The translations under genes and the position numbers were made by a program. A stretch of 64,000 nt of DNA from Barnesiella sp. (GTDB taxonomy: Bacteria > Bacteroidota > Bacteroidia > Bacteroidales > Barnesiellaceae_A). The stretch lies in NCBI GenBank assembly GCA_045645425.1, contig JAZRIS010000004.1, positions 21,817 through 85,816 on the forward strand, in the 5' to 3' direction. Positions 4,895 through 51,853 of the stretch are shown in pieces (within the stretch, counting starts at the first letter, position 1; every line of letters begins with the position of its first letter). The notes under the pieces are model-generated. The model was given only the letters and a program-made list of their open reading frames with translations, was not told the origin of the DNA and ran no database searches.

Positions 4895-4897
4895 GTC

Positions 4898-5896: not shown

Positions 5897-5952
5897 TAGG
5901 GTATATAAATAGCTTATATAAACACAGAAAGGGTGTAAGAATGTAAATTTCT

Positions 5953-6252
5953 TCACCTTAACTCTTGCCACATGTGCTTGAGTGCATACCACGGATGATA
6001 CATCAACATACGCGGGCCGGCATAGCGCATCACGGCACGCATCTGCTCGCGCATATCGGGCTTGTAGCAATGTATAGAGCATTTGCGACAAGTGCTCTTC
6101 TTATCGCCAAAAGGGCACTTTGACAAGCGGGCATGGGCATACTCCAGCAACGCCTTGCACGACTCGCACAACTCGGCATTACCCTCTTTGTGGCGACAAT
6201 AGAGCCTTATCATCAACTCTACAACCCTCTTTTCTTCTTCAATTCTACCCAT
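5953..6252 (-). CDS. nitrous oxide-stimulated promoter family protein (YgbA-like, Cys-rich)
   Basis: RIEEEKRVVELMIRLYCRHKEG...CESCKALLEYAHARLSKCPFGDKKSTCRKCSIHCYKPDMREQMRAVMRYAGPRM is the typical family sequence. The track start 6348 is a TTG, so I prefer ATG 6252 (MGRIEEEK). Confidence 0.75.
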   Translation of the reverse strand: MGRIEEEKRVVELMIRLYCRHKEGNAELCESCKALLEYAHARLSKCPFGDKKSTCRKCSIHCYKPDMREQMRAVMRYAGPRMLMYHPWYALKHMWQELR

Positions 6253-6353
6253 AATATTTATTGCACAAAGCATAAAAATATGCTTCCATTTATAAACATG
6301 AGAGAAACCATGCAACAAACACGATTTCTCTCCTATAATGTTATACAATCACA

Positions 6354-13980: not shown

Positions 13981-14733
13981 ATGCGATACTTCCTCTACTT
14001 TGCCTACGATGGCAGCAACTATCACGGATGGCAAGTTCAACCCAACGCCATCACCGTACAACTTCGTCTTGAGGAAGCCATATACACCCTCTTACGTTGC
14101 CAAACACCCGTAACAGGTGCCGGTCGTACCGATGCCGGAGTGAATGCTCGTCGCATGGTAGCACATTTCGATACAGAAACCCCACTACCCGACCCATCGG
14201 CATTTGCCGACCGCCTCAATCGCCTGCTCCCCCACGATATTGCCATACAAGATTGTGTGCCGGTTACCGACGAGGCCCATGCTCGTTTCGACGCAACCTC
14301 TCGCACATACAAGTATTACGTTATAGACCATAAGTCGCCCTTTGCCGAACGATATGCATGGCGATACCGAGGCACTCTCGACTATGATGCCATGAACCAA
14401 GCTGCCGAGGTATTGTATCGTTACACCGACTTTACATCTTTCAGCAAGCTACACACCGATGTCAAGACCAACAACTGCCGCATTACACACGCTCGCTGGC
14501 AACAAGAAGGCGAAGGCTACACCTTTACTATTACCGCCGACCGCTTCTTGCGCAATATGGTAAGGGCTATCGTGGGTACTCTCATCGAAGTGGGGCGACA
14601 TAAAATATCGCTCGACGACTTCTGCGCCATCATCGAGGGACAAGACCGATGCTTGGCCGGCACATCCATGCCCGGCAAGGCACTCTTCCTGCACGATGTA
14701 ACCTACCCCGAAGAGATATTTATCAACAAATAG
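13981..14733 (+). CDS. truA: tRNA pseudouridine(38-40) synthase
   Basis: 250 aa. [22 protein letters not shown] and the [11 protein letters not shown] catalytic Asp motif. Confidence 0.95.
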
Positions 14734-14767
14734 AGCATACCCTCACCCGATATTCCCTCTCAAACAC

Positions 14768-15670
14768 ATGTGGTTGTCATTGGCATTTCTATCGGCACTG
14801 CTTTTGGGCGCATACGACACTTGCAAGAAAGCAGCTCTCAATGGCAACGCCGTCATTCCCGTTTTATTGCTCAACACACTCTTCTGCTCGTTGCTCTTCT
14901 CGCCGCTTATTATTCTGTCGAGATTGGCACCCGACACGCTACGAGATACCATCCTATATGTGCCCGAAGCCGACTTTCGCACCCACCTATACATCTTTTT
15001 CAAAGCATGTATCGTGCTATCCTCATGGCTGTTTGCCTATTTTTCTACCAAGCACCTGCCCATCACTATTGCCGCACCCATCAAGGCATCACAACCTATA
15101 CTCACACTCGTGGGAGCCATGCTCTTCTTTGGCGAAGCCCTCAATCTATACCAATGGATAGGCGTATCTATAGCCATTATCGCCTTTATACTACTATCTA
15201 TATCGGGCAAAAAAGAGGGAATAAACTTTGGGCATAACATATGGATTATATTTATTGTACTCGCAACAATAACAGGAGCTATAAGCGGGCTATATGACAA
15301 GTACCTCATGTCACACGGATTTCATCGCATGACTGTGTTGGCTTGGTACTCCTACTACCAACTTGCACTCATGATTGTCATTGCACTCATACTGTGGTAT
15401 CCCAAGCGCAAAGAAACCACCCCATTTGTGTGGCGCAAAAGTATATTTTTCATCTCCCTCTTTCTGGTATGCGCCGACTTTGTCTATTTCTACGCACTCA
15501 GCTATCCCGAGTCTATGATTTCGGTTGTATCGATGGTGCGTCGCAGCAGTGTAGTCGTGAGCTTTACGGCCGGAGCCATACTCTTCCGTGAAAAAAACAT
15601 AGGCAACAAGGCCATCGATGTGCTATTGGTACTATTGGGCATGGTGTTCCTCTATTTAGGCTCACGATAA
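14768..15670 (+). CDS. EamA/DMT-family membrane transporter
   Basis: 300 aa with about 10 predicted TM helices arranged as two similar halves. Confidence 0.8.
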   Translation: MWLSLAFLSALLLGAYDTCKKAALNGNAVIPVLLLNTLFCSLLFSPLIILSRLAPDTLRDTILYVPEADFRTHLYIFFKACIVLSSWLFAYFSTKHLPITIAAPIKASQPILTLVGAMLFFGEALNLYQWIGVSIAIIAFILLSISGKKEGINFGHNIWIIFIVLATITGAISGLYDKYLMSHGFHRMTVLAWYSYYQLALMIVIALILWYPKRKETTPFVWRKSIFFISLFLVCADFVYFYALSYPESMISVVSMVRRSSVVVSFTAGAILFREKNIGNKAIDVLLVLLGMVFLYLGSR

Positions 15671-15733
15671 CATCACATCCTTGTACATTTATATAATACT
15701 TGCTATATTTGTACATTCATAAATAATAAGAGC

Positions 15734-16375
15734 ATGAAACGCCACACCTATATTATATCCCTTCTACTATGCCTGCTTGGCACCATAGAGCTATCGGCAC
15801 AAAAGATTGAAGAGGCATGGATGGATATGCCCGCACACATCACCCCCTACATTGGACAAGGTGCTCTATTGGACATGATAGACCTCTACAACGCCGGCAT
15901 GAAGGCATGCGCAAGCACATTCACCGGCGACACAGCACAACTATACACGCTGGGCGACACCTACTTGCACATGCGCACATCGCGAGCAAGTACCCTGCAA
16001 ATAAAGCAAATAAAAGAAGGTAAAAAGACCCTATACGTTGTCATCACAACTATCGAAGGCCCTGCACCCAATAGTCATATAGACCTATACGACGAACATT
16101 GGCAACTCACAACAAAGCCCCAACGCTTCACCCCCGTCACCATTGCCGACTTTATCGACCCACAGAAGAAGAAGCGCAAAGAAAGAGAATTATTGGTCAA
16201 ACAAATAATCCTCCCCACCATACAATACAGCATGTGCGAGCCGACAAACGACATCATCGCCACACCCTCGTTTATGCAAACACTCGACGAAGAAACACGC
16301 CTGAACATTCAAGAGAACTTCTACCAACAACTCATCTTGCAATGGAAAAGAGGCAAATGGGAAATAAACAAATAA
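15734..16375 (+). CDS. hypothetical secreted protein (possibly DUF3256-like)
   Basis: 213 aa with signal peptide MKRHTYIISLLLCLLGTIELSAQ. I recognise no catalytic motif. Confidence 0.65.
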   Translation: MKRHTYIISLLLCLLGTIELSAQKIEEAWMDMPAHITPYIGQGALLDMIDLYNAGMKACASTFTGDTAQLYTLGDTYLHMRTSRASTLQIKQIKEGKKTLYVVITTIEGPAPNSHIDLYDEHWQLTTKPQRFTPVTIADFIDPQKKKRKERELLVKQIILPTIQYSMCEPTNDIIATPSFMQTLDEETRLNIQENFYQQLILQWKRGKWEINK

Positions 16376-16480
16376 GTTGAAAATCAAACAAATAATTCAA
16401 CAACCAAACACTACGAACACGTCTGCATAATAAAAAAGAAAGTTTAGCAAACAACACACTTGCAGATGTTGATTTTTTAG

Positions 16481-16488
16481 TACCTTTG
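16481..16488 (+). promoter_or_regulatory. -7 promoter box TACCTTTG upstream of fba
   Basis: Perfect TAnnTTTG match 39 nt upstream of ATG 16528. Confidence 0.5.
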
Positions 16489-16527
16489 CAAAAAGATTAT
16501 TTATCAATAAACAAAAATATAGAAGAA

Positions 16528-17523
16528 ATGGTAAGCTACAAAGAATTGGGTTTGGTGAACACCCGTGAGATGTTCCGCAAAGCAATGGAAGGCAAGTATG
16601 CTATCGCAGCATTCAACTTCAACAACATGGAGCAAATGCAAGCAATCATCCAAGCCGCCGTAGAGTGTCAGTCGCCTGTAATCCTTCAGGTATCAAGTGG
16701 CGCACGCAAATATGCCAACCAAACACTCCTTCGCTACATGGCACAAGGAGCTGTTGAGTATGCCAAAGAGTTGGGTTGCGCAATTCCCATCACACTCCAC
16801 CTCGACCACGGTGACACATTCGAGTTGTGCAAATCTTGCGTAGATATGGGCTTCTCTTCAGTTATGATCGACGGCTCACACCACTCATACGAAGAGAACG
16901 TAGAACTCACTCGTCGCGTTGTTGAGTATGCTCACAAATACGACGTTACCGTAGAGGGTGAGCTTGGTGTATTGGCAGGTGTTGAAGATGATGTATGCGC
17001 CGAGCACCACACATACACACGCCCCGAAGAGGTAGAAGACTTTGTATCAAAAACAGGTGTCGATTCACTCGCCATCTCAATAGGTACATCACATGGTGCC
17101 AACAAATTCCGTCCCGAGCAATGCACTCGCAACGAAGAAGGCATCCTCGTTCCTCCTCCCCTACGCTTCGACATCCTCGAAGAAATCGAGAAACGCATCC
17201 CCGGCTTCCCCATCGTATTGCACGGCTCATCAAGCGTTCCCCAAGACAAGGTTGCCATCATCAACCAATATGGCGGCGCCCTCAAAGATGCAATCGGTAT
17301 CCCCGAAGACCAACTCCGTCGTGCCGCTTCATCGTCGGTATGCAAGATCAACATCGACTCTGACGGTCGCTTGGCTATGACAGCAGCCGTTCGTGAAGTG
17401 TTTGCCAACAAGCCCGCCGAGTTTGACCCCCGCAAATACCTCGGTCCCGCTCGCGATGCGCTCAAAGAACTCTACAAACACAAACTCATCAACGTACTTG
17501 GCAGTGCCGGCAAAGCACTCTAA
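16528..17523 (+). CDS. fba: class II fructose-1,6-bisphosphate aldolase
   Basis: MVSYKELGLVNTREMF..YAIAAFNFNNMEQ, LHLDHG and GTSHGA motifs. The track start 16486 is a TTG inside the promoter box, so I use ATG 16528. Confidence 0.95.
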   Translation: MVSYKELGLVNTREMFRKAMEGKYAIAAFNFNNMEQMQAIIQAAVECQSPVILQVSSGARKYANQTLLRYMAQGAVEYAKELGCAIPITLHLDHGDTFELCKSCVDMGFSSVMIDGSHHSYEENVELTRRVVEYAHKYDVTVEGELGVLAGVEDDVCAEHHTYTRPEEVEDFVSKTGVDSLAISIGTSHGANKFRPEQCTRNEEGILVPPPLRFDILEEIEKRIPGFPIVLHGSSSVPQDKVAIINQYGGALKDAIGIPEDQLRRAASSSVCKINIDSDGRLAMTAAVREVFANKPAEFDPRKYLGPARDALKELYKHKLINVLGSAGKAL

Positions 17524-41162: not shown

Positions 41163-41633
41163 ATGGCTTACAACTATATGACCGAAGAAGGTCTGAAAAA
41201 ACTCAAAGAAGAACTCAACCACATGGAGAGCGTAGAGCGTCCCCGTGTAGTAGCCGCTATTGCCGAAGCACGCGACAAAGGCGACCTCTCGGAAAATGCC
41301 GAGTATGACGCCGCCAAGGAAGCTCAAGGCATGCTCGAAATGCGCATCGCACAACTCAAAGACACCATTGCCAATGCCCGCATCATCGACGACAGCCGAC
41401 TCAACACCGAGGAAGTGCAACTACTCAACCGTGTGAAAATCAAAAACATTGCCAACGGAGCATCAATGGAATACACCATCGTATCGGAAACCGAGGCCGA
41501 CCTCCGTGCCGGTAAAATTTCTATCGCCACACCCATCGCCAAGGCACTCTTGGGACACCATGTAGGCGACATTGTTGAAGTGCAAGCACCCGCAGGAAAA
41601 ATAAAATTTGAAATCCTCGAAATTGCCATCTGA
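41163..41633 (+). CDS. greA: transcription elongation factor GreA
   Basis: 156 aa. MTEEGLKKLKEEL...SENAEYDAAKEAQ coiled coil plus a C-terminal FKBP-like domain. Confidence 0.95.
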   Translation: MAYNYMTEEGLKKLKEELNHMESVERPRVVAAIAEARDKGDLSENAEYDAAKEAQGMLEMRIAQLKDTIANARIIDDSRLNTEEVQLLNRVKIKNIANGASMEYTIVSETEADLRAGKISIATPIAKALLGHHVGDIVEVQAPAGKIKFEILEIAI

Positions 41634-41670: not shown

Positions 41671-41710
41671 AGAGGCCGCAGCTCACACAGCCACGGCCTC
41701 TTTCTTTTAT
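41671..41710 (+). terminator. intrinsic terminator after greA
   Basis: agaggccg-15 nt-cggcctct followed by ttcttttat. Confidence 0.6.
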
Positions 41711-41778: not shown

Positions 41779-44700
41779 TTACGATGCATATACACCCGTG
41801 GGGCTATATCCCGGTGGCGTTATAACATTATGGATATTATCTATATACTTTCCAAGTGGAATCATGTATGGAGTGAATAGCACCAAACGCTCGTCAAATG
41901 GAGATTCGTTCACTACAATTTCCTTTGTAATATCACCATTCTCACACACATACTGCACGATGGTGTTCAAGAAATCCTCCTGTTCAGCATTGAGTTCACT
42001 ATCCGTCAAGAAATCACTAAATTTCTCCAAAGCCTCCCTTCTATCTACACCTATCAGTGAGCGGATAAAGGCTGCCACATTACCCCCACACAACATTCCT
42101 TGTGTATGGACGGCATAATCCTCCTTACTTCCAAGTTCCTCCCACAAGATGCGCTCAAGCTCATTAACATCCTCCAAGGTAAGCTGTTCGAGATTGTATA
42201 TTTTCTTCAGTACGGGTAGGTTTCTATTGGCTGCAAGGAAGTCTATAATGCGCTGCTTGTACGACACTCGCATAGGCACACTCTCGGCACTACCATCATC
42301 GGTTATGATATCTTTGATGTCGATTACAAATTTCTTGCCTTTATCTCCTACAAGGAACTGCAACAACTCTCTCAACTCCTTGCGCACCTTCTCCAACCAA
42401 CCGAGTGATACATTCTCCCACGCTGCTACCGACAATACATCCATCAGCGTTGCCATCTTGGCTTGCACTTGCGGTAGTGTTGCTTTTTTCTCAATGAGTG
42501 TTTCGGCAATGTTTTTTACTTTAGCAATCTTTCTGTCTGCTTTCACTTCGTCGCTCACAAGGCTGAGCTCTATGGCTAATACCAACGCATCGAATATCTT
42601 TGCCGTAGGCTCTAAAGTGTTCTTGGGTAAGAGTTGAGCTATCTCATTCTTCAAGGTGTGCACATCAACTTCCGACAGCGACAGCCATGCATTTTCGTCT
42701 TTGAAGTGGCTTACATCAGCCCATTTGGCACGCACCGATATATGGCTATCCGACAATGCCATTACTTGCTCCTTCAAGATGACTTTCAATTCATCGTGTA
42801 GCGAACGACAATACTCATCCTCTTGATACTTTTGATGTTGCAAGTAGAAAGCTATATCGGCTCTCAACCCAAATATACGTTCGGTAAGCGACATAGATGA
42901 TGGTGCCGTTTGGCCGTTGGGATTCTTCTCAAAATACTCAAAGTTTCGACACCAATCGAAGATGTAGAAACACTCCTTGTCCTTACCATCTCCAAAGATA
43001 TTTTCTGACAAACGAGTGCCACGACCTATCATCTGCATAAACTTAATCTTGCTCTTCACAATCTTAAAGAATACCAAGTTAAGCACATCGGGCACATCAA
43101 TTCCGGTGTCAAGCATATCTACCGATACGGCTATTTGAGGATTATTATCTCTTACCTCAAACTTATCAATCAAATCCTGTGAATAAGTCACATAATTGTC
43201 TATCAGCACACAGAAGTCTGCCCCATATTCGGGATATAGCTTGTTGAAGCGTTCTACTATCAGTTCGGCATGGCTATGGTTGTAGGCAAATATGATACTC
43301 TTACCTATTCGCTCGCCATACTGCACCTTTTGGCCATTCTCCATCAGGTCTTGCAATACTGCATCAACTGTCGAGATATTGAATATATAGCTGAATATCT
43401 CGTTATTGGATATATCACGCACATATTTCGGTGTGCCATAGGTCATTTGAGGTTCGGCAGCAACATTATGCATTTCTTCGGGCTGTTCATAGCCTTTCAT
43501 TGCCTTTGTTATCTGCTCATACTCCCATATCTGCTCCATCTGTTGCTTCTCCTCGGCAGTGAGGTTGGCATATTTGATACCCTCCTTCAGAATCATCGAG
43601 CCCCGCTTGAAGCCATGATAGTTTACCAAATATCCCTCCGATACAGCATCCTCCAACTCGTAGGCATAGTTTGGCACTCCCTGCTCCATCTCAAATATGT
43701 CGTAGGTGCTCTTCTCAACCTCATCTCTTGGGGTTGCAGTCAGACCCACAAGCATTGCATCGAAGTAGTTGAATATCGCTCCGTACTTGCCAAAGATTGA
43801 ACGGTGTGCCTCATCAATGATTATCAGGTCAAACCTACCCACCGAGAATGGTTTGTCATCAGTGTCGATGTAGTTAATCATTGTCTGATAGGTGCTGAAT
43901 GTGATGCGGGCATTCAGGTCTCTATCCCCGTTATCACTCAATACGCAGGTCGTGGTCGAGGGCAACAACTTCACAAAGTTCTTGTGTGCCTGACCTACGA
44001 GTGAGGTGCGGTCAGCAAGGAACAGCACATTTTTCACCCATCCATTCCTCATCAGCACATCCACCAACGATATGGATACTCGTGTCTTTCCCGTACCTGT
44101 TGCCATCACAAGCAGAGCCTTACGGTGTTTCTTGTTCAGGTGCTCACACACCGCCTTGATTGCCATCTTCTGATAGGCTCGGTCGGTGATGTGGTCTTTG
44201 ACCGTGAAATCTGTTATATCCCTCCTGCTCCTCTGTTGAATCATCCACTCCAAGTCGTTAGCCGTATGGAAGCCAAACAATCTGCGAGGAGGATAACCCA
44301 ATCCGTCAATTATATATGTCTCAAAACCATTGGTGTAGTATATCACAGGTCGCACACCATACTGCTTCTCCAAACAATAGGCATATAGTTCTGCCTGATG
44401 CTTGCCCTTGATGGGTGAAACAGATGTACGCTTTGCTTCAACTACTGCTAAAGGTTTGCCGTTACCACCAAACAACACATAATCCACATATCCCACCTCG
44501 TGAGCATTGGGCATACCCTTAACCTCTACCTCAATGCACGCTTTCAAAGGCTGCACAGCACCCTCAGTGGTGAGAATATCCCATCCTGCCTCCTTCAGCA
44601 TCAGGTCAATGTACATCCTTCGTGTCTCTGCCTCCGATATATCACACGCAATCTCCACCACAGGCTCTGGTGCTTTTACTGCCTCCTTGTCGGCAATGGT

Positions 44701-45183
44701 GATAATGGGGTCGGTAGGTTGCAGTACAACCCTTGTAGGTATTATAGTAGCTTGTTCGGTTGTAGAGGGTATTAAACTCTTGTCAAATGGTTTTACATCT
44801 TCAACCACACGCAGTTTCACGAGGATAGCACCCACAACATTATAGATGTTCAGTAGCGAGAAGAAAGCCTCCTTACGACTCACTGGCGAGGCGGCATGAG
44901 CTGCATTATTGCCCACCTTGCGCACATAGTGCACCGCCATCATCACCCTATCATCGCCTATAAACTCGCGAAAAGGCTCGCCATCAACAAGCTCAAACAG
45001 CGATGTGCGCTCACCTATGGGTAGGTTCTTCATTTCATACAGAGCCCTAACAATATACTCCAGCGCCCTGCGAGAGTTGATAGCACTTATCTCAGGGTTG
45101 CACACCTGATTATCCTCTGCCGCCGAACAAAATCGGTAGAGTTCATCAAGACCTAAATCGCGTATGTAGTCGAAATTTCTCAT
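41779..45183 (-). CDS. hsdR: type I restriction endonuclease subunit R (N-terminal DUF4145-like domain, EcoEI-type C-terminal domain)
   Basis: 1134 aa. It has a PD-(D/E)xK nuclease region, SF2 helicase motifs MATGTGKT and IIDEAHRS, the VDMLDTGIDVP motif, and a C-terminal region resembling the EcoEI R C-terminal domain. The N-terminal ~130 aa (..ALEYIVRALY..VRKVGNNAAHA) resemble DUF4145. Confidence 0.95.
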   Translation of the reverse strand: MRNFDYIRDLGLDELYRFCSAAEDNQVCNPEISAINSRRALEYIVRALYEMKNLPIGERTSLFELVDGEPFREFIGDDRVMMAVHYVRKVGNNAAHAASPVSRKEAFFSLLNIYNVVGAILVKLRVVEDVKPFDKSLIPSTTEQATIIPTRVVLQPTDPIITIADKEAVKAPEPVVEIACDISEAETRRMYIDLMLKEAGWDILTTEGAVQPLKACIEVEVKGMPNAHEVGYVDYVLFGGNGKPLAVVEAKRTSVSPIKGKHQAELYAYCLEKQYGVRPVIYYTNGFETYIIDGLGYPPRRLFGFHTANDLEWMIQQRSRRDITDFTVKDHITDRAYQKMAIKAVCEHLNKKHRKALLVMATGTGKTRVSISLVDVLMRNGWVKNVLFLADRTSLVGQAHKNFVKLLPSTTTCVLSDNGDRDLNARITFSTYQTMINYIDTDDKPFSVGRFDLIIIDEAHRSIFGKYGAIFNYFDAMLVGLTATPRDEVEKSTYDIFEMEQGVPNYAYELEDAVSEGYLVNYHGFKRGSMILKEGIKYANLTAEEKQQMEQIWEYEQITKAMKGYEQPEEMHNVAAEPQMTYGTPKYVRDISNNEIFSYIFNISTVDAVLQDLMENGQKVQYGERIGKSIIFAYNHSHAELIVERFNKLYPEYGADFCVLIDNYVTYSQDLIDKFEVRDNNPQIAVSVDMLDTGIDVPDVLNLVFFKIVKSKIKFMQMIGRGTRLSENIFGDGKDKECFYIFDWCRNFEYFEKNPNGQTAPSSMSLTERIFGLRADIAFYLQHQKYQEDEYCRSLHDELKVILKEQVMALSDSHISVRAKWADVSHFKDENAWLSLSEVDVHTLKNEIAQLLPKNTLEPTAKIFDALVLAIELSLVSDEVKADRKIAKVKNIAETLIEKKATLPQVQAKMATLMDVLSVAAWENVSLGWLEKVRKELRELLQFLVGDKGKKFVIDIKDIITDDGSAESVPMRVSYKQRIIDFLAANRNLPVLKKIYNLEQLTLEDVNELERILWEELGSKEDYAVHTQGMLCGGNVAAFIRSLIGVDRREALEKFSDFLTDSELNAEQEDFLNTIVQYVCENGDITKEIVVNESPFDERLVLFTPYMIPLGKYIDNIHNVITPPGYSPTGVYAS

Positions 45184-45197
45184 AAACTCAAGATTTT

Positions 45198-46391
45198 TCA
45201 GAATGGTAAATCATCTCCTTCAACAAAAGTGAAATCACCTTCGTATCTGAAATATTGTTTTAATAATTGACTTACTCTTTTTTGAAGGTACTCATCTTCG
45301 TTAAGTGCTCTCAATACATCATTATTATCTATCAAAGGATGGCAGCTTACTGCTAATTCAAGTATATCGTCTTTTTTAAGTGGAGTTATTGATATACCCT
45401 TAATAGTTGCGTGCGGTATTGCTCCGTTAATTATAATTCTAACATCACCTTTTATGGTATCCTCAAATAATTTCCAAAACATACCTAACTTATCCTTATC
45501 ATCAAAAATATTCTCGTAAAAATATTTGATAAGTTTTGGCAAAGTTCGGGCATTTTCTTGGTGCAGGTAATCAAACAACTTTAATCTATAATCAAAAATA
45601 TCCTTTTTTATAAAATTAACAATATAAAAATCATCTATTTTATTTACAATGTGCCTATTAAGGTAATTGATATGGGTAATATCGGTGCTATCAATCTCAC
45701 CATCTTTATCAAGATGAGATTGAATCATATCTCCATCAAAAATAGATAGAATATGAAATGTATAATACCGATTATATGGTCTATTATTATGGTGCTCTAT
45801 ACGAGAGCGTTTTTCCATATCCAAAGCCTTGATAGGTGTGATAATTGAATCGTGCAACGCCTCATTTTTGGCAATAACCCAATGCCGTTCTTCCTTTGTT
45901 CTATTTTTTTCTTTTACCTTAGTTATATTCTCGGTTAAAACTTGATATGCAAACACTCGTTTGTCAAAATTGTACAAATGTTTTATCGCTCTATGGTCTA
46001 AATACCTGTCAATAATTATTTCACGATGATTTTTGGTCATATATGACAAGACTTTATCATTCGTGCAATAATGATATGGAGTCCAATCGGTATTAACATC
46101 ATTATGGTTTGCATCACGAGTTAAAAAACACCATTTGCTTGCAGAGCTTTTCTTGCAACTAATAATGAGAGATGTTATGTATTCAATCTTTTCAACATCA
46201 TCCTTCTCAACCTTATATGCAATTATATCGATTTCTCGCTCTACTCCTTTTACATCATCGATGTATTGGCGATTCGTAATTGTCTGCCAATCATGTTTGC
46301 GAAGAATCCCATCTACATAGTGTTCCAATGGGAAACCTGAACTTTCAATCGCATCCTTAATATCTTGCTTTAATGCTTCATCCATAATCAT
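45198..46391 (-). CDS. hypothetical protein: N-terminal Mrr-like PD-(D/E)xK fold fused to a ~290-aa domain of unknown function
   Basis: 397-aa ORF that is very AT-rich. It lies 5 nt after hsdS and 14 nt before hsdR. The core ..YIDDVKGVEREIDIIAYK..(22 aa)..LIISCKKSS (nt 46146-46259) resembles the D...(Q/E)xK core of Mrr-type nucleases. I recognise nothing in the rest. Confidence 0.75.
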   Translation of the reverse strand: MIMDEALKQDIKDAIESSGFPLEHYVDGILRKHDWQTITNRQYIDDVKGVEREIDIIAYKVEKDDVEKIEYITSLIISCKKSSASKWCFLTRDANHNDVNTDWTPYHYCTNDKVLSYMTKNHREIIIDRYLDHRAIKHLYNFDKRVFAYQVLTENITKVKEKNRTKEERHWVIAKNEALHDSIITPIKALDMEKRSRIEHHNNRPYNRYYTFHILSIFDGDMIQSHLDKDGEIDSTDITHINYLNRHIVNKIDDFYIVNFIKKDIFDYRLKLFDYLHQENARTLPKLIKYFYENIFDDKDKLGMFWKLFEDTIKGDVRIIINGAIPHATIKGISITPLKKDDILELAVSCHPLIDNNDVLRALNEDEYLQKRVSQLLKQYFRYEGDFTFVEGDDLPF

Positions 46392-46396
46392 TGCAT

Positions 46397-47533
46397 TTAG
46401 TTAAAGTAATACGACATTCTGCTGTTAAACAACTCTTCGGTCTCGGATATGGATTTTTTAATCAACTCCTTTTGCTTCTCTATCGCCTCAATCTTATCTG
46501 CAAACTCTTGTTGGAGAGCAAGTGGTGGTAATATTATTGGTATAGAACTGACAATTTTAAGGTTAAGATTTGCTTGATTTCCACCTTTTGCCATTGCTCT
46601 AATACTTTCATATTTGATTAGCAATAATTCATATATAAAATCCAATATACATCTTGACTCATCTAACATTATGGCTGCACACGCTTGATTTGTCGCTGCA
46701 CTTATCTTTAACTTTGCTATTTGTCCTCTTGTTTTACCTTGGCCATACATAGCCATCAATAAAGTGTTAGGTGGATAAACCTTGCAATTAGTTTGTTCTA
46801 TCGCTAATTGTGTGATAGTTTCTTCTGTGCTATGTATATCACAATTTTGTACTTCAGTTGTTTTCACCCAATGTATCTCTCCCCCATAATATAACTCTTC
46901 TTTTTCTCTGCTTGGAGTTGCACCCGTTCCTATTGTGCTAACATCTCTTAAACATTTGACTTCCCAACCTTTTTCGTTGGTGATGGGGTCGCCAAACATT
47001 TGGTAGAAGATTGACTGCGCCAACGCATCAAGTTCTCGCAACTGCTCACGCTTCTTCTCAATCACACCACTCAAGCAATCCAACTCCACCACTATCCTCT
47101 CCTGCTCCTCACGAGGTGGAACAGGGATAGACAACTCTTTTAATGCTTCTTTGCCAATAGACTTAAATGTTGAACCCGTACCCTGCGCAATCAACTTCTC
47201 CTTATTAGCAATCAGAGCGTGGTAAATATATTCATTTGCAACCTCTGCGTTATTTCTAATAGATGCCAAACCTCGACCAATGCAACATTTACAATCGGCA
47301 ATATTTATTGCTCCAATAGGAGCACGCACAGAGATAAGAATATCATCAACATCTGCAATTCGTATAGGAGCATTGCAATATACTCTAATAGAGGGATGTA
47401 TCTTGCCGAAATCAGCATTGCCTTGAAAGAATGGCAATCCCTCAGAGTCATTATATGTATCAGAACTTGGAGATTGACCCATAGTAATAGAACAAACCTC
47501 TCCGAGTTTCTTTATTTTCCAACCTTGTTTCAT
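46397..47533 (-). CDS. hsdS: type I restriction-modification specificity subunit
   Basis: 378 aa with two target-recognition domains. These are separated by the conserved coiled-coil spacers (..EKKREQLRELDALAQSIFYQMFGDP.. and ..LALQQEFADKIEAIEKQKELIKK..). Confidence 0.9.
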   Translation of the reverse strand: MKQGWKIKKLGEVCSITMGQSPSSDTYNDSEGLPFFQGNADFGKIHPSIRVYCNAPIRIADVDDILISVRAPIGAINIADCKCCIGRGLASIRNNAEVANEYIYHALIANKEKLIAQGTGSTFKSIGKEALKELSIPVPPREEQERIVVELDCLSGVIEKKREQLRELDALAQSIFYQMFGDPITNEKGWEVKCLRDVSTIGTGATPSREKEELYYGGEIHWVKTTEVQNCDIHSTEETITQLAIEQTNCKVYPPNTLLMAMYGQGKTRGQIAKLKISAATNQACAAIMLDESRCILDFIYELLLIKYESIRAMAKGGNQANLNLKIVSSIPIILPPLALQQEFADKIEAIEKQKELIKKSISETEELFNSRMSYYFN

Positions 47534-47760
47534 AGTTTTTTATACTCAATCCACTCAATTTGTGATCTATCTTTACCAATTAAAATAGTTGCCCCAAATT
47601 TGAATTTATATTCTCCTGACAAATCCATATATTTTTGAATTTTATCTTTATCCTCTTTTTGGTTGTTATACCATTCTGTCTTAAATTCTAACACTAACAA
47701 ATTGTCGGTATTCACCTCCCTTTGTGTCAAATCCTGTAACACTTTTTTAGGACGATACAT
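47530..47760 (-). CDS. 76-aa hypothetical protein translationally coupled to hsdS
   Basis: ATG start at 47760. Its TGA overlaps the hsdS ATG (ATGA at 47533-47530). It contains ..TDNLLVLEFK.., reminiscent of a D..ExK strand, and its tail loosely resembles the C-terminus of PDDEXK_9-type domains. Confidence 0.5.
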   Translation of the reverse strand: MYRPKKVLQDLTQREVNTDNLLVLEFKTEWYNNQKEDKDKIQKYMDLSGEYKFKFGATILIGKDRSQIEWIEYKKL

Positions 47761-47783
47761 AATTTATAATGTTAGTATCGGGG

Positions 47784-48494
47784 TTATACATATTTGCAAA
47801 ACTTTTCAATTTTTTCCAGAAAATGCATTTGGCATATATATTTTCTTTCTTGGATAAATTGTAATATGCTTTCTTTCAATGCTCTTTTGTATTCGTCAGA
47901 TGGCGTCCTTTCAACCATGGAGTCTATTAAAAGTACGTAATCGCCATAGCTTGCATTAATTCCAGCTCGGTTATCGTAGTTGTCGATATAAAGAATTTCT
48001 CTATCCATTTCCATGTGTATAAGAAACTGTACAAATAATCGCATAGAATAAACCAAACTTTTATAGTATTCAACTTCCTTTTTATTGTTAGGAAGCCAAA
48101 TTTTGAAGTCTATTGATTTTTCTGCCAATTGAACATCAAATTTTGTTATTTGAGTTTGTAAATGCTCTAAATAGTTTTTATACATTTTACGATGAATGGG
48201 CATTGAAAAATATTCGTACAAACGATTTAGAAGAACTTCTGCAAAGAAATCAATATCTCTAATTATTGCATACATTTGACGATATAATTCATAACCATTT
48301 TGCTTGGTTTGTTGCCGTTGCAGTAGGTACTGTCGCCAGCCCAGCCATGCCATAATGACTGCATTGACTATGGTAATGCCTATAACCCACCAATCGGGGC
48401 CATTTACTGCCTCGATTAGCTGCTCAAGAGTTGCATTGTGGCTATCTACCGCCTCAGCAAGCCTCTCTATTACCTGTCTGCTATCCTCATCCAT
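47784..48494 (-). CDS. hypothetical single-pass membrane protein
   Basis: 236 aa. It has an acidic 34-aa N-terminus and one TM helix WWVIGITIVNAVIMAWLGW (nt 48336-48392) followed by a basic RQYLLQRQQTK segment. A ~180-aa helical domain with no motif I recognise follows. It starts 3 nt after the stop of the AlbA_2 gene. Confidence 0.7.
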   Translation of the reverse strand: MDEDSRQVIERLAEAVDSHNATLEQLIEAVNGPDWWVIGITIVNAVIMAWLGWRQYLLQRQQTKQNGYELYRQMYAIIRDIDFFAEVLLNRLYEYFSMPIHRKMYKNYLEHLQTQITKFDVQLAEKSIDFKIWLPNNKKEVEYYKSLVYSMRLFVQFLIHMEMDREILYIDNYDNRAGINASYGDYVLLIDSMVERTPSDEYKRALKESILQFIQERKYICQMHFLEKIEKFCKYV

Positions 48495-48497
48495 TGG

Positions 48498-49955
48498 CTA
48501 TTGTTTCTTAATCACTACCCATTTGCCGTTTCGGCTACTGCCCTCACGCTTGATTATGCCTTCTTCTCTGAGTTTATCAAGATGCCAACGAATGCCACCC
48601 TTTGAAATTCCAATTTGCTCAGCAAGGGCAATAATCGTAATTTGAGGATTTTTAGTTAGTGCTGTAATAATCTTTGTGCTAGTTTTTGTGCTAGTTTTTG
48701 TGCTAGTTTTTAGGGTAGTTTTTGGGGTAGTTTTTGTGTCAGTATCCCCATCAACTACATCATTTAGCGAAGCATCCTTGATATTTACTCCAAATGTTGT
48801 GATTCTATCGATCACAAAGTTGGCACGACCATTACCATTCTCTTCAAGGAGGGTCTGAACACGGGCTACTCCACGATTAAACATATTCACATAGCCCATA
48901 GTCTTAAGTGCCTCTGCAACTATTGGGTTGCGATAGTCATTCACATTGGGGAAGTTCTCGGGGCGGGCATTGCCATACAAGCCTCCTGCGTTGGTAATCT
49001 CCAAGTGGTCGCTATATTGGTAGAGTTTTGTGGGTGTATGTGTTTTGTAGTCTCTGTGCATTACAGCGTTCATCATCAGCTCACGAACAGCCCACAGAGG
49101 ATAGTTATATTTATTCTCCTCCTTCAAGGCTGATACAGGCACAGGGCGACTCTGAATAATCGAGGTCTCAATGAATGTATCCAACTTTGGAAGTACGGCA
49201 GCCAATGACCCCTTGAACTCAAACTGATTGGTAATATCAGCTGCATTATCCACACCCTTAAAGCGCACAAACTGAATATAATTCCCGAGCAGGAAGTATT
49301 CAGGGCGTTTGCCAAACAAGATGATTGCGGCATTGGTGGGATGGTCGGTCTTCAGGTCATACAAACGGAGTGCTGCCAGTTGTTCCTTTATATTACGAGT
49401 ATCTTGTGACAAAACATCCTCACTAATGGCTCGTGGCAAATAGGTGCGTGTGATTAACTCGGTGTCTATATCATCGATGGTTGCCTCGGCACAAGGGGTT
49501 GTGTCGAATGTGGGAAAGTTGGCACTGCGTCGTTCCACCAAAATATCTTCCTCCTCGCGTGTGGCAATATCCTTGCGTGGGCCTACTCGGATATATGTGC
49601 GACCTCTGTATCGCACGGGGGGCAATATTGAGGGGGTAACTTCTACAACGATTACATCACCATCATCGAAGGTTATATAATCAACTGTCATAACAGGCAA
49701 CGGAAGAATGTGACCGTCGGTGCGAATAGCCGATATTCGCAATAGGATGTCATCGGTTGCTTTCAGCCCACAACGGCTGCCATCGTCATTGACACCTATG
49801 AGCAAATAGCCCTTCTTCTTGCTATTGGGCATATCATTGGCAAAAGCACAGATAGCCTCGCAGAACTTATCCATATTGGTGGTTGAGATAGTTTTCTCAA
49901 CACGATAAGTCTCGGTGCTCTTTAGCAAATCTAACAACTCTTCTCTTGTTATCAT
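48498..49955 (-). CDS. AlbA_2 (Schlafen-like divergent AAA) / HATPase_c_4 / winged-helix DNA-binding protein
   Basis: 485 aa. The N-terminus ETYRVEKT..FCEAICAFANDM...GYLLIGVNDDG is AlbA_2-like. The middle RELMMNAVMHRDY...LEITNAGGL is HATPase_c_4-like. The C-terminus IIALAEQIGISKGGIRWHLDKLREEGIIKR is a wHTH. Confidence 0.85.
   Translation of the reverse strand: MITREELLDLLKSTETYRVEKTISTTNMDKFCEAICAFANDMPNSKKKGYLLIGVNDDGSRCGLKATDDILLRISAIRTDGHILPLPVMTVDYITFDDGDVIVVEVTPSILPPVRYRGRTYIRVGPRKDIATREEEDILVERRSANFPTFDTTPCAEATIDDIDTELITRTYLPRAISEDVLSQDTRNIKEQLAALRLYDLKTDHPTNAAIILFGKRPEYFLLGNYIQFVRFKGVDNAADITNQFEFKGSLAAVLPKLDTFIETSIIQSRPVPVSALKEENKYNYPLWAVRELMMNAVMHRDYKTHTPTKLYQYSDHLEITNAGGLYGNARPENFPNVNDYRNPIVAEALKTMGYVNMFNRGVARVQTLLEENGNGRANFVIDRITTFGVNIKDASLNDVVDGDTDTKTTPKTTLKTSTKTSTKTSTKIITALTKNPQITIIALAEQIGISKGGIRWHLDKLREEGIIKREGSSRNGKWVVIKKQ
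48673..48744 (-). repeat. 12-bp in-frame tandem repeat (3 perfect + 3 degenerate units) encoding a (T-x-T-K)n linker
   Basis: tttgtgctagtt x3 (48673-48708), then tttagggtagtt, tttggggtagtt and tttgtgtcagta. It encodes ..TDTKTTPKTTLKTSTKTSTKTSTK.. between the HATPase_c_4 and wHTH domains. Confidence 0.9.
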
Positions 49956-49958
49956 AGT

Positions 49959-51449
49959 CTATATCATCTTTTTCAGTTCAACCAATGCGTTTTGGATTTC
50001 GTTTTCCAAACGCTCTATACGCTCCATAATGACCTCTGGTGCATCATATACAACCGCCTCACGCTCCACCTCTTTGTATTTGTTCATCGAGAGGTCATAT
50101 CCCTTCTCTCGAATCTCATCTACGGGCACAAGAAATGATTGCTCCTTGCGGGTACGGTCGGCCTCTCCCTCAAGGTTATGGAAGCGGGCAACCACATCGG
50201 GAATATCATTTTCTGCCACCTCGTTACGCTTTTGGTCGAGGGAGTAACCATCAGCCTTCATATCGTAAAACCACACCTTATCAGTACCTCCTGCATTGGT
50301 CTTGGTGAAGATAAGGATTGCGGTACTCACACCCGAATAGGGTTGGAACACTCCCGAAGGCATAGAGATAACGGCCTCCAAACGGTGGTTGTCAATCAAC
50401 TCCTTGCGGATAGACTTGTGACCTGTGCTATTGCCAAACAACACTCCATCGGGAACAATGCTTGCACATCGACCTCCCGTCTGCAACATACGCACAAAGA
50501 GAGCAAGGAACAACAACTCGGTCTTTTTGGTCTTGGTGATGGCAAGCAGGGATTTGCTCACCGCCTCATTGTCCAAACTGCCTGTAAATGGAGGGTTAGC
50601 AAGGCAAAGGGTATATCGGTTCTCATCGGTGTTGTCAGTCGAAAGGCTATCCCGATAGGCAATGTCGGGGTTATCCACACCGTGAAGCATCAAGTTCATC
50701 GCACCGATACGGAGCATAGTTGCATCGGTATCAAAGCCGTGCAACATACCACTCTTGTAGTGCTCGGAGTGCTCCTTCTTGAGCAGTTCACTCTTGTAGT
50801 GCTGTTGTATATACTTGGCACTCTCTACAATAAATCCCGCACTACCCATAGCAGGGTCGCAAATGGTGTCTTTCAAGGAGGGTTGCATCAGTTCGACCAT
50901 CATACGGATAATGTGTCGAGGGGTGCGGAACTGACCATTATTACCCGATGCAGCCATCTTGCCCAATACATACTCATAGACATCACCCATCGTGTCTCGA
51001 TTGTTCATATCAAGGGCATTGATACCCTCAACAATCTTGGTCAGAGTACGAGGGGACTGAATAAGGAAGGTAGCATTTGCCATAAAACGGCTGTATGCAC
51101 TCTCCTTGCCCTCTCCAAGATTCTTGATGAACACAAAAACATCCTTGGAAATGGTACGATACATTGCCTCTGCCTCCATATTGCGGAATACACTCCAACG
51201 AAGTTGCTCGTAAGGAACATCCTTGTCGGTCTCGGGGTTGTGCCACATACCCTCCTTGAACGTAGGATCTTTGATTGCAGTACCCCAAGCATTGGCATTA
51301 GCCTCTTTGGTGCGCTGTGCATCATCCAGCATCTTCATAAAGAACAGATAGGTCATCTGCTCAAGAATGGTAATAGAATTGGTAATACCACCTGTCCAAA
51401 AGGTATCCCATATAGAATCTATACGATTTTTAATCTCGCCTGTAATCAT
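49959..51449 (-). CDS. hsdM: type I restriction-modification DNA methyltransferase subunit M (N6-adenine)
   Basis: 496 aa with an HsdM N-terminal domain, AdoMet motif DPAMGSAGF and catalytic NPPF (LANPPFTG). Confidence 0.95.
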   Translation of the reverse strand: MITGEIKNRIDSIWDTFWTGGITNSITILEQMTYLFFMKMLDDAQRTKEANANAWGTAIKDPTFKEGMWHNPETDKDVPYEQLRWSVFRNMEAEAMYRTISKDVFVFIKNLGEGKESAYSRFMANATFLIQSPRTLTKIVEGINALDMNNRDTMGDVYEYVLGKMAASGNNGQFRTPRHIIRMMVELMQPSLKDTICDPAMGSAGFIVESAKYIQQHYKSELLKKEHSEHYKSGMLHGFDTDATMLRIGAMNLMLHGVDNPDIAYRDSLSTDNTDENRYTLCLANPPFTGSLDNEAVSKSLLAITKTKKTELLFLALFVRMLQTGGRCASIVPDGVLFGNSTGHKSIRKELIDNHRLEAVISMPSGVFQPYSGVSTAILIFTKTNAGGTDKVWFYDMKADGYSLDQKRNEVAENDIPDVVARFHNLEGEADRTRKEQSFLVPVDEIREKGYDLSMNKYKEVEREAVVYDAPEVIMERIERLENEIQNALVELKKMI

Positions 51450-51645
51450 AGTTTAATCTGCTTTAGGAGCTGTTACTAAAACACCCTTGCGGATGGTGCC
51501 ATATTTGCTGCAAGATGTTTTCTTTGCATTTTACCCGAAAGATAGAAAAATTTGGAAAACAATCAAAATATATCACAAAAATATTGACAAAAACTTGGAC
51601 GTGTTAAATAGGCTCTATATTTGGCCAACATGTTGCAAGGGCCAT

Positions 51646-51684: not shown

Positions 51685-51688
51685 TCAG

Positions 51689-51772
51689 TACCCGGAGCGG
51701 GACTTGAACCCGCACAACCGCAATGGTCAAAGGATTTTAAGTCCTTCGTGTCTACCATTCCACCATCCGGGC
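51689..51772 (-). tRNA. tRNA-Leu (anticodon UAA)
   Basis: Reverse complement is GCCCGGATGGTGGAATGGTAGACACGAAGGACTTAAAATCCTTTGACCATTGCGGTTGTGCGGGTTCAAGTCCCGCTCCGGGTA. It folds as a cloverleaf with anticodon loop CTTAAAA, a long variable arm and TTCAAGT in the T-loop. No CCA is encoded. Confidence 0.9.
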
Positions 51773-51780
51773 AACGGATG

Positions 51781-51853
51781 AGCGAAAGACGGGACTCGAA
51801 CCCGCGACCCTAACCTTGGCAAGGTTATGCTCTACCAACTGAGCTACTTTCGC
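51781..51853 (-). tRNA. tRNA-Gly (anticodon GCC)
   Basis: Reverse complement is GCGAAAGTAGCTCAGTTGGTAGAGCATAACCTTGCCAAGGTTAGGGTCGCGGGTTCGAGTCCCGTCTTTCGCT. Anticodon loop is TTGCCAA, with a 7-bp acceptor stem and a TTCGAGT T-loop. Confidence 0.9.

Follow-up and report, generated by a model that had tools for sequence, protein, structure and literature searches.

The locus described here raises the question of whether three open reading frames (ORFs) nested between the subunit genes of a type I restriction-modification (R-M) operon form one defence module, or were brought together as separate passengers. The operon lies in a 64,000-nucleotide (nt) stretch of DNA from Barnesiella sp., referred to as the window (assembly GCA_045645425.1, contig JAZRIS010000004.1, positions 21,817 to 85,816 of the forward strand). 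The three ORFs encode products of 236, 76 and 397 amino acids (aa). The 236-aa and 397-aa families are given the working names F236 and F397; L0xx and L1xx denote comparison loci, and P01xx comparison proteins. The initial annotation of the window had joined the three ORFs into one co-expressed immunity or abortive-infection module that uses or backs up the R-M complex. Comparison with allelic operons indicates instead that they are independent passengers in two cargo slots and that the 76-aa ORF is the relic of a deletion. The explanation as a whole, a two-slot carrier operon with three separate passengers in the roles proposed below, is considered probable, though by no means assured.

Seven co-directional ORFs occupy the minus strand from 51449 to 41779, in the order hsdM, a gene for an AlbA_2 (Schlafen-like)/HATPase_c_4/winged helix-turn-helix (wHTH) protein, the F236 gene, the 76-aa ORF, hsdS, the F397 gene and hsdR. 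From hsdM to hsdR the gaps are 3, 3, 23, -4 (an ATGA overlap), 5 and 14 nt, and a re-check of the ORF list reproduced the coordinates of the initial annotation exactly. The host operon belongs to the type I systems, as HsdM, a two-domain HsdS and an HsdR with nuclease and superfamily 2 (SF2) motor are encoded together. Pfam, PADLOC and NCBIfam upheld the domains first assigned to HsdM, HsdS, HsdR and the AlbA_2 protein. HsdM falls in a 90%-identity cluster of 297 members. HsdR scores 242 bits against the NCBIfam EcoAI/FtnUII equivalog, for which the cut-off is 550, and is EcoAI-like rather than an equivalog. The interior is AT-rich; a recount returned exactly the figures first given, 10 G+C in 45601-45660 and 27 in 41401-41460 of greA. 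By gene, the GC fraction is 0.318 for F397, 0.294 for the 76-aa ORF, 0.292 for the variable part of F236 and 0.383 for hsdS, compared with 0.471 for hsdM, 0.453 for hsdR and 0.454 for the window.

The junctions between hsdM and hsdS (slot A) and between hsdS and hsdR (slot B) appear to act as cargo slots whose contents depend on the strain. The allele L015, from the same species and chromosomal site, matches window positions 54000-49952 and 45183-40001 at 98% identity. Its hsdM shares 98% DNA identity with that of the window, extending to 49952, 7 nt past the hsdM stop. Between there and the hsdR start the contents differ, and identity resumes exactly at the hsdR start codon (45183). The interior of L015 holds SoFic, a 245-aa F236 allele, an hsdS with other target-recognition domains, 23S_rRNA_IVP and AbiLi/AbiLii. 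DNA similarity between the interiors is limited to the first 203 nt of the F236 gene, the start of hsdS and its central and 3′ conserved regions. To other alleles, too, hsdS aligns only at its start, centre (~46940-47130) and 3′ end (~46397-46537).

A second pair of alleles is more closely matched. L012 and L011 share 99.86% identity over 11,864 nt and then diverge inside the central region of hsdS, beyond which one carries F397 and the other 23S_rRNA_IVP and AbiL. In L018, F397 is stacked with 23S_rRNA_IVP and AbiL. These patterns, together with that of L015, suggest that both slots are refilled by homologous recombination at conserved anchors. The anchors would be the 3′ end of hsdM, the 5′ 200 nt of the F236 gene, the conserved segments of hsdS and the 5′ end of hsdR. 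No inverted repeats, spare hsdS genes or invertase that would allow phase variation of hsdS were found in the window. This differs from the shuffling of hsdS target-recognition domains by phase variation in that the variation lies between strains and not within one genome. The presence of different cargo in the same operon of near-identical strains amounts to a natural experiment, and isogenic comparisons of the slots should be feasible.

The remaining alleles extend the list of cargo. SoFic replaces the AlbA_2/HATPase_c_4/wHTH gene in L011 and L015 (PADLOC 6.4e-114, measured on the L011 homologue), and the AlbA_2/HATPase_c_4/wHTH architecture recurs at the equivalent place in L003 and L109. 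The AbiLi/AbiLii pair consists of AAA_21 and RloB proteins (4.5e-61 and 8.4e-11). L010 carries a 270-aa HNH gene (PDC-M68A-like, 1.9e-30), a 154-aa gene, a 256-aa gene and a PIN_12/PIN_8 gene; L011 and L014 carry a 166-aa membrane protein, L097 146-aa and 446-aa unassigned proteins, and L108 DUF3800/PDC-M04A and PDC-M04B with unassigned proteins of 284 and 149 aa. The expectation that the hsd operon carries hitch-hiking cargo was thus borne out, the allelic slots holding SoFic, AbiLi/AbiLii (RloB-type), PDC-M04, a PDC-M68A-related HNH protein and a PD-lambda-3_A-like protein. The accompanying premise, that canonical hsd operons have no inserts, is outdated, published work having shown that genes are often embedded in type I R-M operons. 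Several unnamed items of slot B cargo may be of separate interest: the 446-aa gene (L097 13774-15114), the 256-aa gene beside PIN_12/PIN_8 (L010 3193-5234) and the pair encoding 284 and 149 aa (L108 6017-7326). PADLOC returned no match for any of them.

Within this set of operons F397 and F236 assort independently. Both are present in the window, L003, L012 and L018; F397 occurs without F236 in L001, L007, L019 and L021, and F236 without F397 in L010, L011, L014, L015, L097 and L108. Since the two are separate in at least 10 operons and have hsdS between them, F397 is mostly solitary elsewhere and the third ORF is a relic, the comparison argues that the three ORFs are independent passengers and not one module. 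The observation that no named defence family fits the 236-, 76- and 397-aa products was reproduced, none of them having a significant match in Pfam, PADLOC 2.0.0, NCBIfam 20 or PHROGs. Their description as three unassignable ORFs stood for F236 and F397, which are real genes with 223 and at least 174 relatives, respectively, and conserved residues; the 76-aa ORF proved to be a gene fragment.

The origin of the 76-aa ORF can be read from L010. The L010 F236 gene is 98% identical to the window at the DNA level up to the start codon of the next gene. The window then lacks 1,086 nt (L010 794-1879), which encode the 270-aa HNH protein and residues 1-88 of the 154-aa protein; beyond these, 98% identity is regained. 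The 76-aa ORF starts at the position of the L010 HNH start codon and runs in frame into the tail of the 154-aa gene. Its residues 11-76 share 91% identity with the last 66 residues (89-154) of the 154-aa protein of L010. It forms a singleton cluster, found on one contig in a collection of ~15 billion proteins. The alignments identify it as a gene fragment, the in-frame scar of a ~1.09-kb deletion, and not a gene family. By this event the HNH gene would have been lost, along with the catalytic half of a PD-lambda-3_A-like nuclease gene.

The full-length 154-aa relative (L010 1608-2069) matches PADLOC PD-Lambda-3_A at 3.4e-18. Its family comprises 42 clusters, 142-226 aa in length in all but one, and carries the motif E37 ... 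D63 ... P85-D86 ... E103-x-K105. Equivalents of E37, D63 and P85-D86 are missing from the 76-aa ORF, in which only the E-x-K strand is kept. Functional selection in E. coli brought PD-lambda-3 to light (Vassallo et al. 2022, PMC9519451), and it has served as an example of abortive infection (PMC13190303); only the last 66 residues of a PD-Lambda-3_A-like relative are retained here. Assignment of the 76-aa ORF as PD-lambda-3 component A was rejected, given that it has no profile match (PADLOC returned chance-level matches only, ~0.006-0.007), can be aligned with residues 89-154 only and has lost three of four motif elements. It is probably enzymatically dead and at most may preserve translational coupling into hsdS through the ATGA overlap. 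Its status as a scar averts a false ‘small protein’ lead.

F236 is a family of some size. An exhaustive profile search yielded 223 representatives at E<=1e-3, 168 of them at E<=1e-10 and nearly all 200-265 aa in length; a word-indexed search gave 20 relatives and a metagenome scan five loci. The AlphaFold (AF2) model is all-alpha (pLDDT 90.4), with an acidic N-terminal helix, a transmembrane (TM) helix (~35-53) that continues to residue 97, and a helical bundle thereafter. The N-tail has nine acidic and two basic residues, and the TM helix is followed by the basic residues R54, R59, K63 and R71. By the positive-inside rule, the ~180-residue helical C-terminal domain of this predicted inner-membrane protein would be cytoplasmic and the short acidic N-tail outside. 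A holin or SLATT effector identity was considered and rejected: matches among 85 members were sub-threshold and TM-driven (DUF2127 in 26, Phage_holin_3_6 in 10, SLATT_1 in four), and one TM helix is predicted where SLATT needs at least two.

The genomic context of F236 is highly restricted. With the family hidden Markov model run over all comparison loci, 14 of 15 distinct contexts placed it between hsdM and hsdS or, in the case of short contigs, next to one of the two. Whenever hsdS can be seen, F236 is directly upstream of it or one small ORF away, and a distant member in L108 (E 1e-14 to the profile) keeps the hsd position. In L106 it precedes two N6_Mtase-like genes. Tandem F236 genes between hsdM and hsdS were seen in L104 (338-1700) and L108 (3412-4784), so the family can duplicate within slot A.

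The F236 gene is a mosaic, built like hsdS from conserved segments flanking hypervariable, AT-rich parts. The 5′ module (GC 0.497) is 96-98% identical in DNA to L011, L014 and L015, and over the remainder of the gene no DNA similarity to them is detectable. At the protein level P0126-P0131 are 86-89% identical to the window protein over residues 1-66 and 16-20% over residues 67-236; P0122 has the reverse pattern, with 65% in the N-terminal and 81% in the C-terminal part. The variable domain differs between the window and L015 although their hsdM and hsdR are 98% identical in DNA, and is 98% identical between the window and L010 although the HsdS target-recognition domains differ. It follows from these two comparisons that the C-terminal domain co-varies neither with HsdM/HsdR nor with HsdS specificity. 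F236 is therefore proposed as an R-M-associated accessory whose hypervariable, shuffled domain probably faces a fast-changing partner, most likely a phage product, and not the Hsd subunits; its conserved part, the membrane anchor, would serve as effector or tether.

The initial suggestion that the ORFs use or back up the R-M complex is plausible, among the three, for F236 only, because it is found almost exclusively beside hsd genes. PrrC is a soluble fusion of an ABC-ATPase with an anticodon nuclease. F236 was rejected as a PrrC-type effector, as it has neither an ATPase nor a nuclease domain and is predicted to be an all-helical single-pass membrane protein (~220 aa). PrrC, known from EcoprrI, is nearly confined to type I R-M operons (Payne et al., 10.1101/2024.01.29.577857), a near-exclusivity shared by F236, and this analogy in distribution suggests a functional dependence on the R-M complex. 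The family could help to explain how such accessories are coupled to type I enzymes or monitor them. F236 might alternatively be a true accessory of the type I enzyme and not a defence gene in its own right, serving as a tether that holds the R-M complex to the inner membrane at the point of DNA entry, as a regulator or as an assembly factor. The near-exclusive hsd association, the fixed place upstream of hsdS even in distant members and the predicted topology of a cytoplasmic helical domain on a membrane anchor agree with such a role. However, operons with closely related HsdM/HsdR lack F236 (L001, L007, L019, L021), and tandem duplicates exist in L104 and L108. A domain that is hypervariable despite 98% identity of hsdM and hsdR, and unchanged across different HsdS domains, would also be unexpected in a dedicated Hsd partner. 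An accessory of this kind is unlikely, although it retains some weight.

For the slot B passenger, F397, a search at E<=0.001 gathered at least 174 relatives, the most divergent at 33% identity; all of them are unnamed and free of Pfam domains. When 185,579 species, each represented by one genome, were scanned with conserved peptide patterns, 79 loci emerged, a lower bound given the dependence on such patterns. The family is rare yet widely spread among phyla, with Bacteroidota, Bacillota, Pseudomonadota (Pseudomonas, Dyella, Burkholderia, Limnohabitans and Photorhabdus), Cyanobacteria (Nostoc), Leptospira, Nitrospirae and one archaeal (Woesearchaeota) metagenome-assembled genome (MAG) among the loci. 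The AF2 model has a pLDDT of 94.2 and a pTM of 0.89. In 49 distant homologues (24-38% identity) E23, Y43, D45, R52, E53, D55, A58, Y59, S78 and K80 are invariant, and K188 and E193 are conserved in 98%; E23, D55 and S78-x-K80 are also invariant in 74 close members.

UPF0102, RE_SinI and NERD are PD-(D/E)xK families. Sub-threshold Pfam matches to UPF0102 were found in 14 of the 74 close members of F397, along with RE_SinI and NERD. The best Foldseek match in the PDB is AF1548 (1Y88; probability 0.99, 60 columns, 32% identity), followed by restriction-like endonuclease domains of R2 retrotransposons (probability 0.8-0.9). The PDB matches cover only ~60-90 N-terminal residues, and no match to the PDB or to viral structures reached E<=0.001; the viral structure library gave weak matches to Cas4, exonucleases and restriction enzymes. 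Because of the invariant residues, the Foldseek matches and the recurrent weak family hits, residues 1-95 (about) are assigned as a PD-(D/E)xK-type nuclease domain with a predicted E/D/S-x-K site. Membership of the superfamily is thus reached with S in place of D/E in the motif and with all matches below curated thresholds.

The remaining ~300 residues of F397 have no known fold, structural relative or PDB sequence match. Searches of solved-structure sequences with the single sequence, the family profile, the N-domain, and N- and middle-domain profiles gave no informative match. Profile-profile comparison found no internal duplication between the N-domain and the middle domain (probability 0.2) and no link between the N-domain and the 154-aa PD-lambda-3_A-like family (probability 0.4). 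The label ‘Mrr-like’ in the initial annotation is acceptable loosely, for the PD-(D/E)xK fold, but not as a family assignment. Mrr-type enzymes are often linked to hsd loci, as in the hsd-mrr-mcrBC region of E. coli K-12. F397 shares with Mrr and other type IV enzymes a single-gene organisation, the lack of a cognate methyltransferase and a PD-(D/E)xK-type site. The domain order is reversed, with the nuclease N-terminal and ~300 C-terminal residues without a structural relative. Membership of the Mrr/type IV family was rejected, as neither Mrr_cat nor Mrr_N was detected in the window protein or the 74 members at E<=1. F397 is, on its sequence and model, a compact single-gene nuclease candidate with ~300 residues outside known folds.

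In eight other Bacteroidales loci F397 likewise lies between hsdS and hsdR (L001, L002, L003, L007, L012, L018, L019 and L021; L007 and L020 are the same contig). The L007 operon, from a Porphyromonadaceae MAG, stands within a larger defence-like cluster (3209-7380 and 14513-17245). This includes an SNF2/DEAD helicase, helix-turn-helix (HTH) and WYL genes, a 1013-aa N6_Mtase protein, unassigned 371- and 910-aa proteins and an MvaI/BcnI-type type II system. Outside the type I slot, L031 carries F397 directly after hsdR-hsdM-hsdS. In L026 (6421-12357, a Christensenellales MAG) a homologue is flanked by a Mod-like methyltransferase gene (6.7e-9 to EcoP15I Mod) and a gene for a 1090-aa protein, and overlaps both neighbours (-4 and -20 nt). 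The most likely reading is a type III operon of the mod-X-res form, in which F397 would have been embedded independently. The 1090-aa protein is read as Res from one REase_III match in the neighbour set and the adjacent Mod-like gene; it has no match in the PDB.

Elsewhere F397 is mostly solitary. Approximately 45 of the 49 full-length distant members are stand-alone genes with sizeable intergenic gaps, and a cognate methyltransferase is absent from these ~45 loci. An all-against-all comparison of four neighbours on each side found no conserved partner; no more than a few loci (L005/L025, L111) have a small HTH gene upstream. The neighbours are integrases or resolvases, occasional defence genes (OLD-like, Tmn, PDC-S15, PDC-S31, SoFic and type IIG) and housekeeping genes. 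On the Enterobacter hormaechei plasmid pMB8072_1 (L111 6305-8080), a homologue and two small HTH genes make up a three-gene islet inserted in the middle of a methionine-salvage (mtn) gene cluster.

F397 is best read as a defence nuclease, because it has no partner, shares its site with AbiL and PIN genes, and is repeatedly associated with R-M systems. It would be a self-sufficient nucleic-acid endonuclease and, since it travels without a methyltransferase or antitoxin, most likely modification-dependent (type IV-like) or infection-triggered. In Bacteroidales it would ride in slot B, co-transcribed with the R-M genes. An alternative is that F397 is not a defence protein but a selfish or mobile-element nuclease (homing or addiction), or a repair or recombination nuclease carried by chance. 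Most stand-alone copies are single-gene islets among housekeeping genes, such as that in the mtn operon of the Enterobacter plasmid; integrases or resolvases adjoin several loci, and PADLOC gives no match. Set against this are three separate kinds of R-M association, and the occupation of the same site by AbiL or PIN genes. F397 also comes without terminal repeats, transposase or conserved partner, is absent from phages and has a very patchy distribution, unlike core repair. A non-defence nuclease is considered distinctly unlikely.

A more far-reaching version would make F236 an R-M-dependent membrane guard and F397 the founder of a new single-protein restriction family. The hypervariable cytoplasmic domain of F236 would be a sensor, either of anti-restriction factors made by phages or of the condition of the Hsd complex, and its conserved N-terminal TM module would act on the membrane as an abortive-infection effector or tether the protein to the DNA entry site. 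The ~300-residue C-terminal region of F397 would be a new DNA- or modification-sensing fold. If true, F236 would be the membrane counterpart of the PrrC-EcoprrI relationship. This pairing of roles is thought improbable.

The single co-expressed module of the initial annotation is very improbable. Its genes are co-directional and tightly spaced, a consensus-pattern scan of the minus strand between hsdM and hsdR found no terminator-like site comparable in strength to the hairpin 3′ of hsdR, and F236 and F397 co-occur in four operons. Nevertheless, each family occurs without the other (four F397-only and six F236-only operons), ~45 stand-alone F397 genes have no conserved neighbour, hsdS separates F236 from F397 and the 76-aa ORF is a unique deletion relic. 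It is scarcely credible that the ORFs are spurious annotations, or pseudogenes decaying in an AT-rich spacer: this is true of the 76-aa ORF, a relic and singleton, and the interior GC is low and the upstream 74-aa gene also a remnant, but F397 and F236 are full-length, with hundreds of relatives, invariant residues and models at pLDDT 94 and 90.

Several points weigh against the favoured explanation of two independent defence passengers and a relic in a carrier operon. The F397 motif has a serine where the canonical (D/E)-x-K has an acid, and the fold call draws on a 60-column Foldseek match at E 0.02 and sub-threshold Pfam matches. The neighbours of stand-alone F397 are mostly housekeeping or unassigned genes, with few integrases, resolvases or defence genes, and the defence-island and mobile-element signal outside R-M operons is modest. 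The hsd-embedded clade of Bacteroidales may descend from a single insertion, in which case its copies are not independent. As to a route of mobility, 72,556 plasmid records yielded only five with F397, where it is annotated ‘hypothetical protein’, and 50,697 phage records yielded none. Neither family matched any of 5,027 PADLOC models at E<=0.1, including 145 embedding-derived models (PDC/HEC), or the antiphage models of NCBIfam. For F236, Foldseek against the PDB gave generic helical bundles only and nothing at E<=0.001, and its hypervariability could stem from weak constraint and not from an arms race. Finally, the presumed single transcript is read from gene spacing and the consensus terminator scan.

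To our knowledge, phage defence in gut Bacteroidales has been little studied experimentally. Embedded defence cargo in type I R-M operons is a known phenomenon; the F397 and F236 families are unnamed in every library searched. Both are predicted to fold confidently, without informative relatives save for the F397 nuclease core. As two unnamed families with well-folded models, they are candidates for anti-phage or anti-plasmid functions in gut Bacteroidales.

Embedded genes have been reported to be common in type I R-M, BREX, DISARM and Hma operons, with 96.7% co-oriented with the host system and over half without a clear function (Payne et al. 2024, 10.1101/2024.01.29.577857). The present operon resembles this ‘guilt-by-embedding’ in having same-strand genes nested among subunit genes, many of them of no assigned function, and in that the known systems SoFic, AbiL and PDC-M04 occupy the same slots of allelic operons. 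All three ORFs lie between hsdM and hsdR on their strand and match no family in Pfam, NCBIfam or PHROGs; they agree with the operational definition of embedded defence cargo used by Payne et al., a same-strand gene that is nested in a known multi-gene defence system and is of no mobilome or housekeeping family. Bacteroides is not mentioned in the text of that study; here, slot swapping is visible between near-identical strains.

Two embedded systems have been tested experimentally. TgvAB is embedded in the type I R-M cluster of Vibrio cholerae VPI-2 (10.1101/2024.04.04.588119). DarTG2 lies between hsdS and hsdR in the RRDM island of enteropathogenic E. coli, a position noted by the authors as a possible recombination hotspot (PMC12255303). 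Both are, as proposed for F397, independent defence units inside a type I R-M operon, and DarTG2 occupies the junction that F397 has, between hsdS and hsdR. TgvAB, a GmrSD-like (DUF262/DUF1524) type IV system, consists of two proteins, and DarTG2 of a toxin and its antitoxin, whereas F397 is one protein with a predicted PD-(D/E)xK domain at its N-terminus, resembles neither and is known here from sequence and model. The AAA_21 and RloB genes of the Campylobacter rlo/AbiL type are in slot B of the sister alleles L011, L015 and L018, where the window has F397 instead. The features of the operon and its borders are listed in Table 1.

Table 1. Features of the type I R-M operon and its flanks (window positions).
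Feature	Position	Strand	Basis
tRNA-Leu(TAA) and tRNA-Gly(GCC), directly upstream of the operon	51688..51853	-	ARAGORN, Rfam
Remnant of the 74-aa gene upstream of hsdM	51456..51569	-	tblastn: residues 37-74 only, in-frame stop
hsdM, type I R-M methyltransferase; left border of slot A (conserved)	49959..51449	-	HsdM_N and N6_Mtase; PADLOC MTase_I 7.6e-183
Slot A cargo 1: AlbA_2 (Schlafen-like)/HATPase_c_4/winged-HTH protein, 485 aa	48498..49955	-	Pfam SLFN_AlbA_2 3.8e-17, HATPase_c_4 1.3e-10, HTH_24 6.5e-13
Conserved 5′ module of the F236 gene: acidic N-tail and TM helix, ~64 codons and 12 nt upstream	48304..48506	-	DNA identity of 96-98% to L011, L014, L015
Slot A cargo 2: F236, predicted 236-aa single-pass membrane protein, mosaic gene	47784..48494	-	Family, AF2 model, contexts
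76-aa ORF, relic/fusion from the ~1.09-kb deletion	47530..47760	-	Alignment to the L010 154-aa protein
Deletion junction within the 76-aa ORF	47723..47757	-	DNA alignment with both L010 edges; blastn breakpoints 47758 and 47722
hsdS, two target-recognition domains	46397..47533	-	Methylase_S, two stretches, 1.9e-49; PADLOC Specificity_I 3.3e-72
Slot B cargo: F397, predicted stand-alone nuclease, unnamed family	45198..46391	-	Relatives, AF2 model, contexts
PD-(D/E)xK-like N-terminal nuclease domain of F397 (predicted), residues 1-100	46092..46391	-	Invariant residues, Foldseek, weak Pfam
hsdR, EcoAI/IB-like restriction/translocase subunit; right border of slot B (conserved)	41779..45183	-	ResIII, Helicase_C, HSDR_N, EcoEI_R_C; PADLOC REase_I 2.2e-158
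Terminator-like hairpin 3′ of hsdR, probable operon end	41671..41701	-	13-pair stem, 8 G-C pairs; consensus scan only

Further features of the neighbouring genes were recorded. Rfam detected no RNA elements in the window beyond the two tRNAs. Residues ~3-116 of HsdR form an N-terminal DUF4145 (Pfam 2.4e-6), an additional module on the restriction subunit, which also matches the N-terminus of the PADLOC candidate PDC-M16A (1.3e-13). A 74-aa ORF (MATDKQER...) is intact, 93-96% conserved and directly upstream of hsdM in L001, L003, L011 and L097; it has no Pfam match. Between tRNA-Leu and hsdM in the window, its last ~38 codons are left, with an in-frame stop among them. The position of this ORF resembles that of the small repressor RptR, upstream of gammaproteobacterial type I operons. 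Within the AlbA_2/HATPase_c_4/wHTH gene, a 12-nt tandem repeat in at least five copies (48668-48743) encodes a (T-K-T-S)n-like linker that separates HATPase_c_4 from the winged helix, and an in-frame change of copy number could alter the length of this linker.

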